Shown piece after piece: positions 3,478 through 11,166 of a stretch of DNA of 11,233 nt. The stretch covers positions 1 to 11,233 of the forward strand of contig JACQJF010000045.1 in the NCBI GenBank assembly GCA_016198165.1, in the 5' to 3' direction. The translations under genes and the position numbers were made by a program. The stretch is from Candidatus Iainarchaeum sp. (lineage in GTDB: Archaea; Iainarchaeota; Iainarchaeia; Iainarchaeales; GW2011-AR10). Every line of letters starts with the position of its first letter. The stretch's first letter is position 1. The notes beneath the pieces were generated by a model. It saw only the letters and a list, made by a program, of their open reading frames with translations, was not told the origin of the DNA and made no database searches.

Positions 3478-3550
3478 TTGAAACTATGGCAAACCCAGAA
3501 AAATAACTCCGTCAATTGTCCAGGGTTCATTGCACTCTTGTGCGGTGCCC

Positions 3551-3624
3551 CGCAAAGCTTCGCTTTGCGAGGTGCTAATCTGTCAAACCACGCCAAAATG
3601 CCGGAAAACTTTCATGGTTTGACA
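3551..3624. terminator. Convergent-gene spacer with two inverted repeats (possible bidirectional terminator or protein-binding site)
   Basis: Perfect 8-bp stem, 3-nt loop hairpin cgcaaagc-ttc-gctttgcg (3551-3569). A 10-bp perfect inverted repeat tgtcaaacca (3581-3590) / tggtttgaca (3615-3624) is separated by 24 nt. It lies between the stop of the SPFH gene (3477) and the stop of the minus-strand exonuclease gene (3639). Confidence 0.3.
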
Positions 3625-3638
3625 TAACCTCGAAATAA

Positions 3639-4214
3639 TCAAAGTTTTATTATTTTTCTATTTTTTAATTCAAAAAAACATTTTGCACAGGCAGAAACAT
3701 CACTTAAAGCATCGTGGGCATCATCAAAAGAAGTATTGAATAATTTGTGGTGCAGCTCCATAAGTGTTGGCCATTTATATCCATAAGGCCCAAGAATCTT
3801 GCAAAAATCCGTTGTTGAATGCATCGTGCATATTTTTGTTATTGAAAAAAGATTATTGTTAATTTTTGTTCTAATCAATTCAGAACCTACGACTTTTTCA
3901 TCAAAGTTCATATTATGTGCAACTAATAACTTTGAATTGCCGAGAATGGCAGAAAACTCACTTAGCGCTCTTTTTAGAGGAATGCCGAATTTATTTGCTT
4001 TTTCATTGGATATCCCATGAACTTTAACAGTATCTGGGGGAATTTTGAAATTCTCTGGTTTAATGATATAGCTTTGCTTTGACATCTCTTTACCGGAATT
4101 ATCACACTGCAACCACGCAATTTGAACTAATCGTGGCCAATTACTTAAATCTGAAACTGGCGCGCTCCAACTTTTTGGGAGTCCTGTGGTTTCTGTGTCA
4201 AAAAACAAATACAT
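3639..4214 (-). CDS. DEDDh-family 3'-5' exonuclease (DnaQ / DNA Pol III epsilon-like)
   Basis: 191 aa with Exo I MYLFFDTETTGLP, Exo II LLVAHNMNFDEKVV and Exo III FDDAHDALSDVSACAKCF (H-x4-D, hence DEDDh). It is visibly more AT-rich than the flanking genes. An SD-like ggtga sits in the 16-nt spacer to the upstream gene (revcomp of 4215-4230). Confidence 0.8.
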   Translation of the reverse strand: MYLFFDTETTGLPKSWSAPVSDLSNWPRLVQIAWLQCDNSGKEMSKQSYIIKPENFKIPPDTVKVHGISNEKANKFGIPLKRALSEFSAILGNSKLLVAHNMNFDEKVVGSELIRTKINNNLFSITKICTMHSTTDFCKILGPYGYKWPTLMELHHKLFNTSFDDAHDALSDVSACAKCFFELKNRKIIKL

Positions 4215-4230
4215 TTATTTCACCATATTT

Positions 4231-6195: not shown

Positions 6196-6963
6196 ATGGT
6201 GCTCAAAGGACTCCGGGAAAAGCTGAAATGGCTTGACCCATTCACCTATGTCGACCGCTACGTCGCACCTGTAGTGAATCCCGGCAGGTCGGAAACAATC
6301 GGTTTTTTTCTCGACATTTTTTTTGCCGCTCTTTTCGCATTCATTCTCTACAATTTTTTGGGTTTTGTACTTTCCACTTCCGCGCCAATCGTGATAGTGG
6401 TGAGCGGGAGCATGGAGCCCGTGCTTTACCGCGGCGACATAGTGGTGCTTCAGGGCGTGAAAGCCGAGAGTGTTTCAGCGCCCCTTGTAGTGCTTGAAGA
6501 GCCGTTCCTGGATTCGCGCCCGTTTTCGGATTACGCTTCTGCCACCTGCGTGGACAAAAAAACGGGTGAACAAAAGGACTGCCAGCTTTTTGGCGGGAAG
6601 AACCCGCGCAGCTTTGACACCGTGTCGATAGGGTTCGTGAACGGAAAATCCGTGCAAATCCAGGAAACCGGTGACATAATCGTCTACAATTCCACTTCCT
6701 CTGGCGAGCCCGTGATTCACCGTGCCGTGGCAAAACTGCAGGGTATTGACAAGACGGTCATACTGACAAAAGGGGACAGCGAGCTAAACCCCCTCGTTGA
6801 CCAGCAGGCAGGAATAACCCGTGGGGCAGTGGCGGGTTCACAGATACAGGGCAAGGCGCTCTTCAAAATCCCGCTCCTTGGCTACCTGAAGTTGCTGGTT
6901 TTTGACGATTTGCCTGTCCTGGTTTTCGGGTGCAAAAACCCGCGCGGCTGCCAGATTCCTTGA
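6196..6963 (+). CDS. Archaeal-type signal peptidase I (S26B, Sec11-like)
   Basis: 255 aa. An N-terminal TM is followed by the Ser box VVSGSMEPVLYRGDIVVL (Ser72), the His box GEPVIHRAVAK (His175), a TKGDSELNPLVD (KGDNN-like Asp box) and a C-terminal hydrophobic segment. The Ser-to-His spacing (~103 aa) is longer than typical and includes two Cys. Confidence 0.8.
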   Translation: MVLKGLREKLKWLDPFTYVDRYVAPVVNPGRSETIGFFLDIFFAALFAFILYNFLGFVLSTSAPIVIVVSGSMEPVLYRGDIVVLQGVKAESVSAPLVVLEEPFLDSRPFSDYASATCVDKKTGEQKDCQLFGGKNPRSFDTVSIGFVNGKSVQIQETGDIIVYNSTSSGEPVIHRAVAKLQGIDKTVILTKGDSELNPLVDQQAGITRGAVAGSQIQGKALFKIPLLGYLKLLVFDDLPVLVFGCKNPRGCQIP

Positions 6964-7123
6964 GCCCATGCAGGGCTCGCGACGCGGGCGTTTCGCTTCG
7001 CTCAACAGCCCGTGCAGGGCTTCGTACCCCTGCTTGGGCACAAGTACCCTTGCGGGCACAAGCGACGCGTATGTGTCCCGTCTGTGACGGGACAGTAGGA
7101 TGGTATTCCTATTTATTTTTATT
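6963..7123. other. GC-rich repeat/hairpin block plus T-rich tract between the signal peptidase gene and pcna (candidate small structured RNA and/or terminator-promoter)
   Basis: Direct repeats agcccatgcagggct (6963-6978) / agcccgtgcagggct (7007-7022), each itself a gccc-NTGCA-gggc mini-hairpin. gggcacaag occurs twice (7036-7044, 7054-7062). Perfect 8-bp hairpin gtcccgtc-tgt-gacgggac (7075-7093) is followed by the T-rich tattcctatttatttttatt (7104-7123). It is much more GC-rich than its surroundings. Confidence 0.35.
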
Positions 7124-7162
7124 GCAGTCAAAAGGTCATATTGTCCGTGAAACATAAATCGG

Positions 7163-7930
7163 ATGGGGTTTTTCTCGTTGCTTAAGCTTGTTCTAACTGA
7201 CGCTGTTTTGTTCAAGAAAAGCGTGGATGCCGTGGCGGTCCTGATTGACGAGGCCGAGTTTGTCGTCAAGGACGAAGGGGTTTTCCTCAAGGCAACCGAC
7301 CCAAGCCAGATTTCAATGGTTGACTTTTCCCTTCCCAAAAGCGCGTTTGCGGAATTCGAGGCGGGGCCCGAGCACAGGCTTGGCGTGGACCTGGATTACC
7401 TTAGCCAGGTTTTGTCGCGCGCAAAAGCGGGCGATTCGCTTGAGCTTGAGGTTGACGACTCGAATTCAAAGCTGTTCGTGTTTTTTTCCGGAAAAGCCAA
7501 GAGAAAATTCGAGGTCCCATTGATTGACGTGAATTCGCGCGACCTCCCGAACCCGAAAATAAGCTTTGACGCGGAGCTGCGCGTGAAAAGCGAGGCACTG
7601 CATGACGCCCTGAAGGACGCGTCCCTAATCAGCACGCACATAATCCTCGGTGTTGACGGGGAAGGCTTTTTCCTCGAGGCACGGTCAAGCAAGGGCTCGA
7701 TGAAAAACGAGATTCATTCAAGCCAAAAAGAATTCCTGCTGGAGTTCAAGGCGCGCGAGAACGTGCGCTCAATGTTCCCGCTTGATTACCTGTCTGACAT
7801 CGTGAAATCCGCGCCAAGCGACAGCGAGATTTCCCTGCGCTTAAAGTCAAACGCCCCTGCAGAAATAGCGTACACTGTGGGTGGTGCAAGCTTGCGGTAT
7901 TTCCTTGCGCCAAGAATAGAGTCAGAGTAA
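7163..7930 (+). CDS. pcn: DNA polymerase sliding clamp PCNA
   Basis: 255 aa with typical archaeal PCNA features: LIDEAEFVVKDEGVFLKATDPSQISMVDFSLPKSAF, KRKFEVPLIDV, C-terminal RYFLAPRIESE (compare archaeal ...IFLLAPRVEE). The start could alternatively be the in-frame TTG at 7178, 10 nt after SD-like ggatgggg. Confidence 0.9.
   Translation: MGFFSLLKLVLTDAVLFKKSVDAVAVLIDEAEFVVKDEGVFLKATDPSQISMVDFSLPKSAFAEFEAGPEHRLGVDLDYLSQVLSRAKAGDSLELEVDDSNSKLFVFFSGKAKRKFEVPLIDVNSRDLPNPKISFDAELRVKSEALHDALKDASLISTHIILGVDGEGFFLEARSSKGSMKNEIHSSQKEFLLEFKARENVRSMFPLDYLSDIVKSAPSDSEISLRLKSNAPAEIAYTVGGASLRYFLAPRIESE
7898..7926 (+). repeat. Left copy of the 29-bp perfect direct repeat tatttccttgcgccaagaatagagtcaga (candidate attL); it is the native 3' end of pcna
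   Basis: Identical to 10233-10261. It encodes the ...YFLAPRIES-E codons of PCNA and is followed by gtaa (stop at 7928-7930). Confidence 0.85.
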
Positions 7931-7946
7931 AATGGAGATTTAAAAA

Positions 7947-8579
7947 ATGAAGCTTCCAAAAGTCGCCTTTCTTATCCCTGCGTATGGTTCTGTGAAAATC
8001 CCTGCTTACGACTCAATGATTAATTTTGTTGCAAATACAGAGAGATTTTGCCAAGCTGCTTTCATTGTAAAATCCTCTTGTTATGTTCATGAAAACCGCA
8101 ACCGCCTTGTCAAAGCCTTTTTGGAGGCTGACGAAAAACTTGATTTTGACTATGCTTTCTGGATTGACTCTGACATGGTTTTTACTTGGCAACATGTAAA
8201 ACAATTGTTGAAATTCATGGAGGAGAAAAATGTTGATATTGCAACGGGTGTTTACTACTCTTTTGTCCAAGGCGGAAAACCCGGACCGGTAATTGTAAGA
8301 AAGAAAGAAGATGATTCCTGGGAAACCATGCCTGCTTCTGAACTAAAAGAGCCAATGATAGTTGATGGTGCAGGGTTTGGTTTTGTAGTGATGAAAACAA
8401 AAATCTTGAAAGAAATGGCTCAAAAAAAAGGAGAACACGTATTCGGGTTCAGGTTTTCAAAAAAAGGCAAAATGATTGGAGAAGACAACTTATTTTTTGA
8501 GGAAGCAAAACAACTTGGCTATGGTCTTTGGGTGGTCCCACAAGTCCGTGTCGGGCACGCAAAGACCGTAGTAGTATAA
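7947..8579 (+). CDS. GT-A-fold glycosyltransferase-like protein (GT2-like, DxD motif)
   Basis: 210 aa. N-terminal VAFLIPAYGS (GT-A beta1 / IP-Y motif), DxD-like FWIDSDMVF, later GEDNLFFEEAKQLG ... VGHA (GT2-like ED...H arrangement). SD ggagat 9-14 nt upstream of the ATG. It starts 16 nt after the pcna stop. AT-rich. Confidence 0.45.
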   Translation: MKLPKVAFLIPAYGSVKIPAYDSMINFVANTERFCQAAFIVKSSCYVHENRNRLVKAFLEADEKLDFDYAFWIDSDMVFTWQHVKQLLKFMEEKNVDIATGVYYSFVQGGKPGPVIVRKKEDDSWETMPASELKEPMIVDGAGFGFVVMKTKILKEMAQKKGEHVFGFRFSKKGKMIGEDNLFFEEAKQLGYGLWVVPQVRVGHAKTVVV

Positions 8580-8654
8580 CTCCTTTTTTTGTCAGGTTTT
8601 TAAATTCTTCCACAATACCATTACTAACTTTCCTAAATTTTTGGGGGTGTAATA

Positions 8655-10163
8655 ATGGAAAGAAAAAAATCTATAGCAATAGCCTGGTTATTTGCAGTTC
8701 TAATTCTGGCTTTTTCGATTTTTGTGACTGCAACAAACAATACGACAAACATAGTTGAAATGATTTTTGACTCAATAGAATTGCAAGAAAATTCTTCAGT
8801 TGTAAATAACTCTCATACAAAACTAGTAGCTGACTTGTTTACGGATTCTGATGGATATGCAGGTACAATAAACACTGGTAGTACAACTAGCTATTTTAGA
8901 ACTGCAAGTGAGCAATATGAATCAAAACCAAGTCAAACGAACACTATAAGTGCTGTTAGTGAACCAGGATTTGAAACAGTAACTGGTTGGACTGCCACCA
9001 CTTCCGGAACTGCAAACCCGCAGTCTAATCAAAGTTCGACACAAGCCCACTCTGGAACTTATAGCTGGAGGCTTTATCAAAATGGAACTGCAAGTGGAAT
9101 ATCAATTGCAAATGTTCTTAGAAGTGTTGACTTTACGAATGTTAATTACGTTCGATTCTGGTACAAAGTTACAACTTCTATAACTGGAAATGCAAATGTA
9201 AAAGCTTATGCTGGAAGTACTCTACTTTTCACATTCCCAACTTCAACTGGTGACTGGGCACAAACGGATTTTCTTGATGTGAGAGCCATTACCGGATCAC
9301 AAGACCTTAAATTTGAATTTTGGAGTGATTCAGGTCCAAGTGTCACAGGTGAAGTCTACATAGATGACATAACAGCTTACAGCTGGGAAGACGGCGACAT
9401 TATAACTAATTCTTTGTCTTCTGGAGAAACCAAAAAAATTAACCAAGCACAAGTTTATTTGCCAGATAAAACAATTCCAAGCGACTCGACATTAACAGTT
9501 GACGTGTCAAGTGATGGCGGAAGTACATACACGAATAATATCAGTCTTAATCAGATAGTGAATTTGACCTCTACTTTGGGCTCTGATTTGAGGTTAAGGT
9601 TCAATCTAAATCCAAATACGAGTAAAGACCAAACTCCGACACTGAAAAATTATTCAATAAAATACTTGACCACAGACCAGCTCGAAGGATTGTTATATGC
9701 AAATACCAGTGATTCGTCAGCCATTGCAAACACTACTACGGAAACAAATTTTGACACAAGTTACACCTTGCCTGCAGATGCTTTGACAACTGGCAAAGTC
9801 CTGAAAATAAAAGCGCAGGGAAAATACTCTTCAACTGCCACTCCGAACCTAAACCTTAGAATAAAATACGGTTCAACAACCCTGGTCCAGTCAGGAAGCG
9901 TCAATGTAGTTAATACCGCTTCAAACCAAGGGTGGTTAGTAGAAGGTACAATCATTGCCAGGACAACCGGAAGCACCGGAACCGCGATGGCAACGGGCTA
10001 TTTCCACAATGGAAGGAACAATAACATGCCATTGACAAATGCTGGGGCAACCACAATTGACACTACAACTGCAAATACACTGCAGGTTTCGGCTCAATGG
10101 AATACCGCAAGCCCAAGCAACACCATTACCTTGGAAAACATAACCATAGAAGCATTAAATTAA
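8655..10163 (+). CDS. Secreted Thr/Ser/Asn-rich surface protein with CBM4_9-like (galactose-binding-like jelly-roll) domain and many N-glycosylation sequons
   Basis: 502 aa. Signal peptide MERKKSIAIAWLFAVLILAFSIFVTA. CBM4_9-like pattern EPGFETVTGWTA...QAHSGTYSWRLYQNG...ANVLRSVDFTNVNYVRFWYKV (GFE..GW....AHSG.YS..L......Q.V......Y..W.K). About 13 N-x-S/T sequons (NNTT, NSS, NQS, NGT, NIS, NLT, NTS, NYS, NTT, NIT ...). No C-terminal TM. SD ggggtg at about -11 to -6. TATA-like 'tttttaaa' about 50 nt upstream. Confidence 0.6.
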   Translation: MERKKSIAIAWLFAVLILAFSIFVTATNNTTNIVEMIFDSIELQENSSVVNNSHTKLVADLFTDSDGYAGTINTGSTTSYFRTASEQYESKPSQTNTISAVSEPGFETVTGWTATTSGTANPQSNQSSTQAHSGTYSWRLYQNGTASGISIANVLRSVDFTNVNYVRFWYKVTTSITGNANVKAYAGSTLLFTFPTSTGDWAQTDFLDVRAITGSQDLKFEFWSDSGPSVTGEVYIDDITAYSWEDGDIITNSLSSGETKKINQAQVYLPDKTIPSDSTLTVDVSSDGGSTYTNNISLNQIVNLTSTLGSDLRLRFNLNPNTSKDQTPTLKNYSIKYLTTDQLEGLLYANTSDSSAIANTTTETNFDTSYTLPADALTTGKVLKIKAQGKYSSTATPNLNLRIKYGSTTLVQSGSVNVVNTASNQGWLVEGTIIARTTGSTGTAMATGYFHNGRNNNMPLTNAGATTIDTTTANTLQVSAQWNTASPSNTITLENITIEALN

Positions 10164-10173
10164 TCTCGAAGAA

Positions 10174-10222
10174 GTGGCTTTGGTTCAATAAGAGCTAAAG
10201 CCGCTTTACTTTTTTCTTTTTT
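10174..10222 (+). terminator. Hairpin + oligo-T terminator after the surface-protein gene
   Basis: gtggctttgg (10174-10183) pairs with ctaaagccgc (10195-10204) as a 10-bp stem including two G-U wobbles (valid only in the plus-strand transcript), with an 11-nt loop. It is followed by tttacttttttcttttttc (10205-10222). Confidence 0.45.
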
Positions 10223-10232
10223 CAATTAAAGT

Positions 10233-10261
10233 TATTTCCTTGCGCCAAGAATAGAGTCAGA
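10233..10261 (+). repeat. Right copy of the 29-bp perfect direct repeat (candidate attR); an orphan pcna 3'-end fragment
   Basis: tatttccttgcgccaagaatagagtcaga followed by ataa. In the pcna frame it reads Y-F-L-A-P-R-I-E-S-E-stop (gaa instead of gag for the last Glu), but there is an in-frame stop only 2 codons upstream, so it is not part of any ORF. Confidence 0.85.
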
Positions 10262-10351
10262 ATAAGGGCCTGTTGAAACCAAAAGTGCGGGGTATTGCAA
10301 GTTTTTTCCAATGCATATCTTTAAGTATACAAACACCAATATTGTTTACAG

Positions 10352-10672
10352 GTGGTCTCTTTGGTTGAAGTGTTGTCCATCCGGCCTTCAGAGGATCTTG
10401 AAAAAAAACTTAAGCTTCTGTCAAAAATGGAGGATTTAAGCAGGCCTTCCCTTGCAAGAAAGCTTTTGGCTGTAGGGGCAAAAGAAGAGTTGAAAAATAA
10501 GGCACTGGAATTGTACAAAGCAAAAAAAGTCTCTTTGGGCAAGGCCGCAGAAATCGCGGGCATCCCTGTTTTTGAAATGCACAATATTTTGAACACGAAT
10601 GAAATCCCTCTTAACATAAGCAAAAAGTCGGTTTTGTCGGATTTCAAGAGGGCTTTGGAGCTGAAAATGTGA
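10352..10672 (+). CDS. UPF0175-family antitoxin-like protein (partner of DUF3368 PIN toxin)
   Basis: 106 aa (GTG start; a TTG at 10361 is an alternative). The N-terminus is RHH-like (LSIRPSEDLEKKLKLLSKMEDLSRPSLARKLL). The C-terminus matches the UPF0175 consensus (ALELYKAKKVSLGKAAEIAGIPVFEMHNILNTNEIPL). SD-like aggtgg just upstream. Its stop overlaps the start of the next gene (GTGA). Confidence 0.65.
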   Translation: MVSLVEVLSIRPSEDLEKKLKLLSKMEDLSRPSLARKLLAVGAKEELKNKALELYKAKKVSLGKAAEIAGIPVFEMHNILNTNEIPLNISKKSVLSDFKRALELKM

Positions 10673-11166
10673 AAATTGTTCTTGATTCAACTCCACTTAT
10701 CTATTTGAACAGGGCCGGGCTTTCATGGGTTTTTGGCGAGTTTGAAACCTTTATCCCCCGGAGTGTTTTTGAAGAAGTTGTACTTAGGGGCAAAGAGTTT
10801 TACAAAAAAGATGCTTTGGTTGCCGAAAAGCTTGTAAATGACGGCAAAATTGTTGTGGAGTTTCCATCGGTTACTGTTGAGGCAAGGCGCATTTTGGCGG
10901 AATTGGGGGAAGGCGAACTCCAGGCAATAGCACTCGCAAAACAAAAGAATGCGGTTGCGATAATTGACGATGATGTTGCAAAAGGTTTTGGCGAAATTTT
11001 CGGGGTGGACGTTCACGGGACTTTTTTTTTGATTTCTTTGCTTGTCCACAACAAAAAACTGAGCAAGGCACAGGCAGTAAAAAAAATCCAGGAAATGATT
11101 AAACTTGGCTGGAGGGTAAGCGTTGATAAATATTTGGAATTTGTTGAGCTCATAACTAAGTTGTAA
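10669..11166 (+). CDS. DUF3368-family PIN-like nuclease (toxin-like)
   Basis: 165 aa with a GTG start overlapping the upstream stop by 4 nt (gtga), suggesting translational coupling. KIVLDSTPLIYLNRAGL (PIN N-terminal Asp) and GEGELQAIALAKQKNAVAIIDDDVAKGFGEIFGVDVHGTFFLISLLVHNKKL match the DUF3368 pattern (GEaeaIaLAke..a.liiDDk.Ar..A..lgl.v.GTlgiL). T-rich tail 11167-11200. Confidence 0.65.
   Translation: MKIVLDSTPLIYLNRAGLSWVFGEFETFIPRSVFEEVVLRGKEFYKKDALVAEKLVNDGKIVVEFPSVTVEARRILAELGEGELQAIALAKQKNAVAIIDDDVAKGFGEIFGVDVHGTFFLISLLVHNKKLSKAQAVKKIQEMIKLGWRVSVDKYLEFVELITKL

Follow-up and report, generated by a model that had tools for sequence, protein, structure and literature searches.

The 11,233-bp contig of the groundwater archaeon Candidatus Iainarchaeum sp. 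(JACQJF010000045.1, from the metagenome-assembled genome GCA_016198165.1), analyzed here over its entire length and referred to as the window, carries a foreign insert of two genes directly behind pcna, the gene of the DNA sliding clamp. The first one encodes a 210-residue protein that, judging from its sequence and predicted fold, is a minimal GT-A glycosyltransferase (GT), and the second one a 502-residue protein (8655-10163, + strand) that would be a new architecture of known, largely unannotated phage-fiber modules. The explanation favored here, to which we give roughly even credence, is a virus-derived two-gene surface cassette, placed by a Campbell-type insertion at the 3' end of pcna, with a glycan-binding adhesin or receptor-binding role. 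The lateral acquisition of both genes had been proposed in an initial annotation of this DNA, and it is upheld by a drop in the GC content of third codon positions (GC3), by a direct repeat at the boundaries, and by the empty site of a relative.

The insert has 2,335 bp and a 33-nt direct repeat at its two ends, the copies agreeing in 32 of the 33 positions and the sole difference being a synonymous change from GAG in copy 1 to GAA in copy 2. Because the repeat duplicates the 3' end of pcna, this gene stays intact, and its product reaches 120.6 bits with the NCBIfam model TIGR00590 (cut-off 99.1). Between the repeat copies, GC content drops from about 0.52 to 0.39, and GC3 is 0.37 in the GT gene and 0.32 in the gene of the 502-residue protein, compared with 0.50-0.65 in the backbone genes. 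This backbone is archaeal, with Csl4, RpoL, an archaeal signal peptidase, and PCNA recognized by Pfam and NCBIfam. The insert holds only two coding-strand open reading frames (ORFs) of at least 60 residues, neither of which matches a recombinase, and tRNA and Rfam scans of the window found nothing. A Logan contig from a separate assembly (L006), equivalent to positions 7007-10470 of the window, contains both junctions as well. Exact 26-mers of the repeat have no match in IMG/VR, and a search of all fetched loci with up to six mismatches returned only Logan copies of the same locus. No empty-site variant was seen in the same samples, where the only contigs with the window PCNA carry the GT, and a look-up with the PIN-like protein found nothing. 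A 22-nt inverted repeat (86% complementary) pairs the left edge of the pcna repeat (7890-7911) with the 3' part of the 502-residue ORF (10091-10112); it may have a role in recombinase binding, but it is probably coincidental because its right arm encodes a conserved SAQW..AS motif of the C-terminal domain described below.

A comparison with related genomes shows that the cargo of this site varies. In a 742-kb metagenome contig (L105), the PCNA is 75% identical (73% for the nucleotide sequence of the syntenic gene) and the gene order is collinear with the window on either side of the insert, with the GT and the 502-residue protein genes missing. The spacing between pcna and the following toxin-antitoxin pair is 730 bp in this contig versus 2,390 bp in the window. 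In place of these two genes, 30 nt past the pcna stop, L105 encodes an unrelated 207-residue multi-pass membrane protein with a signal-like N terminus (6783-7406), and the pcna 3' end was not found repeated at the position of this gene. A contig from the Hainich groundwater (L106), whose PCNA has 71% identity, contains at positions 905-1048 the 3' ends of pcna and of a convergent rpiB-like gene, with only about 20 nt separating the two stops; this is presumably the empty, ancestral state of the insertion site. A more distant relative (L015, PCNA 49% identical) lacks both cargoes, with the upstream synteny preserved.

The second cassette of the junction is the toxin-antitoxin pair itself, composed of UPF0175 antitoxin-like and PIN-like genes, which has 72% nucleotide identity to positions 7475-8320 of L105. 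There, the pair is flanked by direct repeats of 35-45 nt that copy the 3' end of rpiB (7431-7473 and 8403-8447, D2), of which a 9-nt remnant can be aligned in the window (Table 1). The window rpiB-like 3' end begins 8 nt past the PIN stop and would be the other flank of the ancestral pcna/rpiB junction, the pair appearing as an older neighboring cassette shared with L105. Since the cargo is different in L105, the site is empty in L106, and the toxin-antitoxin pair has its own repeats, this convergent junction records at least two, and probably three, separate insertions. Two of them left the same footprint, in which the 3' end of a gene is duplicated and a recombinase is lacking. A tandem integration with an integrase beyond the contig, where the toxin-antitoxin pair would be part of the second element, was also considered and rejected, given that L105 has the pair in synteny, with an identity like that of the backbone, and that rpiB closes the window. 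In sum, from the features of an integrative element, the locus displays the target-duplicating direct repeats and an empty site in relatives, and an integrase of its own is missing.

The GT gene starts 16 nt past the pcna stop (stop at 7928-7930, ATG at 7947). Both ORFs of the insert, this gap with its Shine-Dalgarno-like motif, and the IPAY, DSD, GED, and H motifs are present as the initial annotation had described them, and the GT-A features proposed there are confirmed by several lines of evidence. The protein scores 28.6 bits with the Pfam model PF00535 (Glycos_transf_2; gathering cut-off 23.3), in a match that covers residues 43-114 only, and it aligns over its full length with phrog_1574 (E 1.7e-25), besides matching a PHROG annotated as glycosyltransferase (E 6e-14). 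Its sole sequence match in the Protein Data Bank (PDB), found with phmmer, is A197 of the Sulfolobus turreted icosahedral virus (STIV; 2c0n_A, E 0.0024, residues 6-194). Both proteins carry the DxD and IGED..FF motifs, and D180 of the GT aligns with D151 of A197. According to a review (PMC10551542), A197 is essential for the virus, and its D151E mutant is impaired, with virus replication delayed. The AlphaFold2 model of the GT (predicted local distance difference test [pLDDT], 80.9; predicted TM score, 0.81) has the GT-A fold, and its best Foldseek match in the PDB is again 2c0n (E 4.8e-10), with protein-directed GT-A enzymes and Mnn9 next. A total of 472 PDB matches were obtained at E<=1e-3; the best 50 of these are almost all GT-A enzymes, with one exception, a GT-fold viral envelope protein. 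Moreover, the five closest homologues all share the motifs IPAYG (10-14), D74-S-D76, G178-E-D180, and H204 unchanged. A score above the curated family threshold, a single Rossmann-like alpha/beta/alpha GT-A fold, and a DxD together with a catalytic acidic residue support the assignment of the protein as a new member of the A197/phrog_1574 family.

The likeness to A197 extends to the size of about 200 residues, with a lone GT-A domain and a near end-to-end alignment, and to a common motif of the N-terminal beta-strand (IPSMGSV in A197, IPAYGSV in the GT). However, the GT is only 23% identical to A197, is encoded in the chromosome of a DPANN archaeon, and is closer to the cyanophage and IMG/VR members of the phrog_1574 family. 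This GT family is mostly viral: relatives are found in 101 phage genomes, nearly all of them T4-like cyanophages (about 30% identity), and on 303 IMG/VR stretches, and a word-indexed search returned only four cellular-looking homologues. The closest homologue, with 74% identity, is located on a 3-kb low-GC contig (L001) next to a PIN toxin-antitoxin pair, and the GT ORF is all that this contig has in common with the window. On L001 (1-2959, 37% GC), the GT gene lies between a disrupted subtilisin-like/PKD-like gene region and the antitoxin plus PIN pair, being again beside a toxin-antitoxin module.

For the 502-residue protein, no significant match was found in Pfam, NCBIfam, PHROG, or PDB sequences, the best Pfam match being a weak one to MAM (E 0.025, residues 110-240). 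An exhaustive HMMER search with this protein over 1.84 billion cluster representatives (50% clustering) divides it into two modules, and both of them (residues 47-340 and 340-502) have counterparts in distal tail proteins of tailed phages. The N-module aligns end to end with its stand-alone homologues, with invariant EP.FET...W, VDFTN, D.I, and DGGST motifs; within its jelly roll, EPGFETVTGW, AHSGTYSWRL, VDFTN, and YIDDI are conserved. For example, the homologues P0160 and P0161 are tandem paralogues encoded 3' of capsid, tail-tube, and large tail genes (L017-L019), and further phage tail loci with N-module homologues are known (L016 and L100). Such tandem paralogues end the tail clusters, with 333 and 329 residues in L017 (8989-10990) and 309 and 328 residues in L016 (1-1927).

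The family of the C-domain counts 4222 cluster representatives (E<=1e-3) and is not covered by Pfam, PHROGs, or PDB sequences, and PDB sequence and profile searches with the N-module and the C-domain gave nothing significant. This domain has 133 relatives in IMG/VR, is C-terminal in 77 of 84 ORFs, and occurs in carrier proteins of 160-1700 residues. Its homologues are encoded in tail-fiber gene clusters (L011 and L014), and fusions to collagen-like fiber shafts, to tail-fiber parts, or to pectate-lyase (tailspike-like) domains are seen. Nevertheless, the C-domain is not restricted to phage fibers, being also part of exported bacterial proteins: about one-sixth of the retrieved members have a signal-peptide-like N terminus, the best homologue (56% identity) is in an ordinary bacterial chromosomal context, and the exported bacterial protein P0012 is encoded at a chromosomal locus (L101). 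Some of the proteins with this domain (among P0012-P0159) have two copies of it, such as P0015, fused to a head-decoration-like domain. Both modules in one protein are found in the 502-residue protein alone among 163 retrieved.

In the AlphaFold2 model of the 502-residue protein, two regions are confident (residues 110-243 and 345-502), both of them all-beta jelly-roll domains. Foldseek matches in the PDB include a tandem CBM22 pair, CBM27, CBM16, CBM4-2, MAM, Vip3, and a phage tailspike (E 1e-7 to 3e-4). Matches to carbohydrate-binding module (CBM) and MAM folds comprise about 150 columns with a root mean square deviation of 4.4-5.7 Å, a TM score of about 0.5, and E 1e-4 to 3e-4. The CBM4-2 match (PDB code: 2y6j) has E 2.7e-4 and TM 0.51, in an output that is silent on which of the jelly rolls aligns, and the tandem CBM22 pair aligns across both domains. 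This agrees with the annotated CBM4_9-like domain as far as the fold goes: according to the model, the protein would share the jelly roll with CBM4/9/16/22/27 and MAM. In sequence, by contrast, it differs from them, since no CBM_4_9 (PF02018) was detected at E<=1 in the protein or in four N-module homologues. Against the viral structure collection BFVD, the matches are uncultured Caudovirales proteins (25-28% identity), as well as proteins with minor tail or tip-attachment annotations.

The N terminus differs from that of the phage homologues. They start with MAFT.F.AGN..., whereas the 502-residue protein has RKK, a hydrophobic core, and VTA at this place (MERKKSIAIAWLFAVLILAFSIFVTA; Kyte-Doolittle mean over 12 residues, 3.0), and AlphaFold2 predicts a helix at residues 2-29. 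This segment can be read as an export signal or a membrane anchor, with VTA as a putative cleavage site by the -3/-1 rule. The replacement of the phage-type N terminus by a signal or anchor suggests an adaptation to export. The signal-like segment reported earlier is therefore there, and secretion through the Sec pathway is a prediction from its sequence. Homology to tail proteins is documented by the loci of both modules, by IMG/VR, and by BFVD; a working phage fiber is a different matter, because the insert is devoid of other virion genes, lies in a chromosome, and has a signal/anchor-like helix where the phage proteins have their attachment segment. As both modules have relatives among phage tail proteins and most of the GT family is viral, the receptor-binding or adhesin role, mentioned only second in the initial annotation, is better supported than its main proposal of a surface-glycoprotein variation module.

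Regarding expression, a scan of positions 6900-10450 with a simple TTTA[AT]A pattern, crude enough to miss a TATA-like stretch upstream of pcna, finds TATA-like sites at two places only (7939 and 8599). The only one between pcna and the GT gene, TTTAAAAA, abuts the ATG and is too close to act as a GT promoter. Having a Shine-Dalgarno-like motif and no promoter of its own, the GT gene would most likely be transcribed by read-through from pcna, which is plausible from the arrangement of these signals. The 502-residue protein gene appears to be transcribed from its own promoter. The initial annotation had suggested that both genes may be co-transcribed with pcna as one unit; the T7 run after the GT stop and the TATA-like box and Shine-Dalgarno-like motif of the second gene indicate that this is probably not the case.

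Based on these observations, the following sequence of events can be proposed. A 2.3-kb low-GC viral cassette would have entered the chromosome of a member of the Diapherotrites/Iainarchaeota through a Campbell-type (site-specific) recombination event at the final 33 nt of pcna, regenerating its 3' end and leaving a second copy downstream. Since no integrase was found, we infer this mechanism from the repeat alone, and the recombinase could have been supplied in trans or lost since. In this lineage, insertions would have recurred at the convergent pcna/rpiB junction. The GT, read through from pcna and ended at the T7 run, would be a cytoplasmic and metal-dependent enzyme, where D74-x-D76 binds the nucleotide sugar and the metal and D180 matches D151 of A197. 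The 502-residue protein, expressed with its own TATA-like box, Shine-Dalgarno-like motif, and terminator hairpin, would be exported via Sec and would expose two lectin-like jelly rolls derived from phage tail-fiber or baseplate proteins; its probable function at the cell surface would be that of an adhesin that binds glycans or of a receptor-binding protein. The acceptor of the GT could be the Thr/Ser/Asn-rich 502-residue protein itself or a lipid-linked glycan bound for surface proteins.

Several points weigh against this explanation. The cassette is known from one genome only, and no integrase, transposase, or attP-bearing element is present in the window or in the viral collection. Adjacency of the GT gene and a fiber gene was observed in 0 of 80 viral GT loci and 0 of 80 viral C-domain loci. 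This, together with the L001 contig, which shares the GT ORF only, rules out a conserved GT-fiber gene pair, and with the partner gene absent from these viral loci, the functional coupling of the two genes is the weakest step of the proposal. T-runs as long as that behind the GT gene occur inside pcna, which makes termination after the GT uncertain. For the 502-residue protein, hydrophobicity is the sole ground on which export is predicted, residues 30-109 and 244-341 are of low confidence in the AlphaFold2 model, and carbohydrate binding is a prediction with no CBM match at the sequence level. Finally, the earlier description of this protein as heavily decorated with N-x-S/T sequons does not hold: the count of 13 is correct and equals what the composition predicts (11.8 +/- 2.8; 797 of 2000 shuffles reach 13), so the richness in Thr, Ser, and Asn accounts for the sequons, and they carry no separate signal.

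A first alternative, which we consider possible but clearly less probable than the surface cassette, is that the insert is the remnant of a recently decayed provirus or integrative element, made of a virion-glycosylating GT and a membrane-anchored spike or fiber, with no host function. Here, both att sites would have been kept, with the integrase and all other genes deleted. Both gene families are mainly or partly viral, the 33-nt repeats are att-like with no recombinase between them, and the composition is foreign, all of which this alternative would explain. A virion-glycosylating role would also fit A197, which, according to the review cited above, possibly glycosylates the STIV capsid protein in the cytoplasm. 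However, both ORFs are intact and have Shine-Dalgarno-like sequences and plausible promoter and terminator signals, and the fibers of tailed phages do not have signal peptides, as opposed to the signal or anchor found here. Moreover, several precise deletions would be needed to keep exact att sites yet lose every other gene, and the neighboring toxin-antitoxin cassette, also integrase-less and repeat-bounded, points to a recurring small-cassette process instead of a one-off decay.

With the same rather low probability, the locus could be a surface-variation or virus-defense island, in which the GT alters the surface glycans and the fiber-like protein masks or decoys a receptor; susceptibility to viruses would thereby change, as it does in lysogenic conversion or superinfection exclusion, and adhesion would not be the function. 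In favor of it, the cargo of the pcna/rpiB spacer differs in two related genomes and in both consists of envelope proteins (the GT and the 502-residue protein in the window, the 207-residue protein in L105), PHROGs place the GT family among moron and auxiliary functions (phrog_34859), and the neighboring toxin-antitoxin pair matches the candidate defense system PDC-S70. Yet neither the GT nor the 502-residue protein has a PADLOC match, the sequons are at chance level, and a receptor-binding fold argues equally for adhesion and for masking. From the surface-variation module of the initial annotation, what remains is a variable surface locus, which the membrane protein gene at the same spot of L105 fits; the sequons lend it no support.

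A broader hypothesis, speculative and improbable in our view, is that the pcna/rpiB junction is a cassette-capture platform, where a trans-acting recombinase inserts small integrase-less cassettes into convergent housekeeping genes, at their final 33-45 nt, with the cargo co-oriented with pcna. Its cargo would then be the GT with the adhesin, the UPF0175/PIN pair, and the 207-residue membrane protein of L105. If true, promoter-less cargo would ride on the transcription of an essential gene, and the platform would be a functional analogue of integrons in DPANN archaea that uses other recombination chemistry. Finally, an assembly or binning artifact, a low-GC viral fragment chimerically joined to an archaeal contig, could be invoked from the abrupt GC shift and the short 11.2-kb contig of a metagenome-assembled genome, but it is barely credible, because the 33-nt repeat is exactly at both boundaries, both junctions lie on one Logan contig from SRR12113384 and each is covered by contigs from SRR12113383, and the synteny with L105 resumes right after the insert.

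The surface cassette can also be compared with known mobile systems. Cis-mobilizable elements (CIMEs) are integrase-less, att-flanked islets described in streptococci, and other integrative elements target the 3' ends of genes. The insert resembles CIMEs in that its repeats duplicate the 3' end of the target, it has no internal recombinase, and a second such cassette adjoins it. In contrast to them, the genes targeted are pcna (and rpiB), not tRNA genes, the insert is only 2.3 kb long, and the host is an archaeon. We know of no cognate integrase or parental element of this insert. Integron gene cassettes have been reported in archaeal metagenome-assembled genomes, and the small promoter-less cargo 3' of an expressed gene or promoter, with several cassettes at one spot, recalls them. 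An integron cassette was nonetheless rejected as an explanation: no attC-type imperfect inverted repeat, attI, or IntI was seen in the window, host coding sequence is directly repeated at the boundaries, and the only hairpin (10171-10207) is followed by T-runs in a terminator-like manner. Serotype-conversion glycosyltransferases of prophages and the "metagenomic islands" of archaeal surface glycoproteins also combine a foreign GT with an envelope protein in a strain-variable locus; unlike them, the insert has two genes only, and its GT is soluble, with neither a membrane flippase nor GtrA/C partners.

DPANN archaea depend on cell contact, and little is known about how their surface proteins are acquired and varied. 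In this context, the locus is a concrete example for which the boundaries, the empty site, and an alternative cargo are known; in it, viral tail-fiber modules were fused, given a putative export signal, and put in a chromosome with a viral-type GT. The 502-residue protein offers a candidate adhesin, and the GT offers a second archaeal setting for enzymes of the A197 type, which are poorly understood. Attention is also drawn to the unannotated C-domain family, with its more than 4000 clusters. Moreover, two adjacent integrase-less cassettes that duplicate gene 3' ends hint at an uncharacterized route of gene capture in small archaeal genomes.

Table 1. Features of the insert and its flanks, with positions in the window
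Feature	Position	Strand	Basis or remark
pcna (DNA sliding clamp), target whose 3' end is duplicated	7163..7930	+	Pfam PCNA_N and PCNA_C
Direct repeat copy 1 (attL-like), last 10 codons of pcna plus stop	7898..7930	+	Repeat family D1, 33 nt
GGAG Shine-Dalgarno-like motif	7934..7937	+	9 nt before the GT start codon
Minimal GT-A glycosyltransferase, 210 residues, A197/phrog_1574 family	7947..8579	+	Pfam, PHROG, PDB, predicted fold
T7 run, candidate archaeal oligo-T terminator	8584..8590	+	T-run scan; 5 nt after the GT stop; putative function
TATA-like box TTTTTAAATT	8597..8606	+	About 50 nt upstream of the 502-residue protein start; putative function
GGGGGTG Shine-Dalgarno-like motif	8643..8649	+	5 nt before ATG 8655
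Putative Sec signal peptide or signal anchor, residues 1-26 (RKK, 17-residue hydrophobic core, VTA)	8655..8732	+	Hydrophobicity, model
N-module, residues ~47-340	8793..9674	+	Homologous to stand-alone 310-333-residue proteins of phage tail gene clusters
Jelly roll 1, residues 110-243, inside the N-module	8982-9383	+	pLDDT 73-90
Asp-box-like beta domain	Residues 250-340, within the N-module	+	pLDDT <50 for residues 244-341
C-domain, residues 345-502 (sequence matches from ~340), beta-sandwich	9687..10160	+	pLDDT 72-90
16-pair hairpin (10171-10207), then two T6 runs; candidate terminator of the 502-residue protein gene	10171..10222	+	
Direct repeat copy 2 (attR-like)	10233..10265	+	Identical sequence present in L006 and L008
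TTTTTTCCA, 9-nt remnant of the duplicated rpiB 3' end, left toxin-antitoxin repeat	10302..10310	+	Alignment; L105 copy intact
UPF0175 antitoxin-like and PIN-like (DUF3368) genes	10352..11166	+	Pfam; PADLOC PDC-S70 candidate defense system
rpiB-like gene 3' end, convergent, at the contig end	11175..11233	-	Translation SGEERHRRRVEKIEKMEN up to the stop; matches the L105 and L106 rpiB C termini

Elsewhere in the window, the region 3480-4230, located between convergent backbone genes and absent from L105, is a second foreign insertion. It encodes a 191-residue DEDDh/DnaQ-like exonuclease (ORF 3639-4214, - strand; GC3 0.28) that matches the PADLOC model "DEDDh, CAS-associated" with E 8e-28, and no direct repeat was found flanking it. 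The start of the contig (1-1134) has a GC content of 0.34, short ORFs only, and no counterpart in L105; two short repeats tie it to the exonuclease insertion, one between 269-289 and 3646-3666 and the other between 1-16 and 3669-3684.

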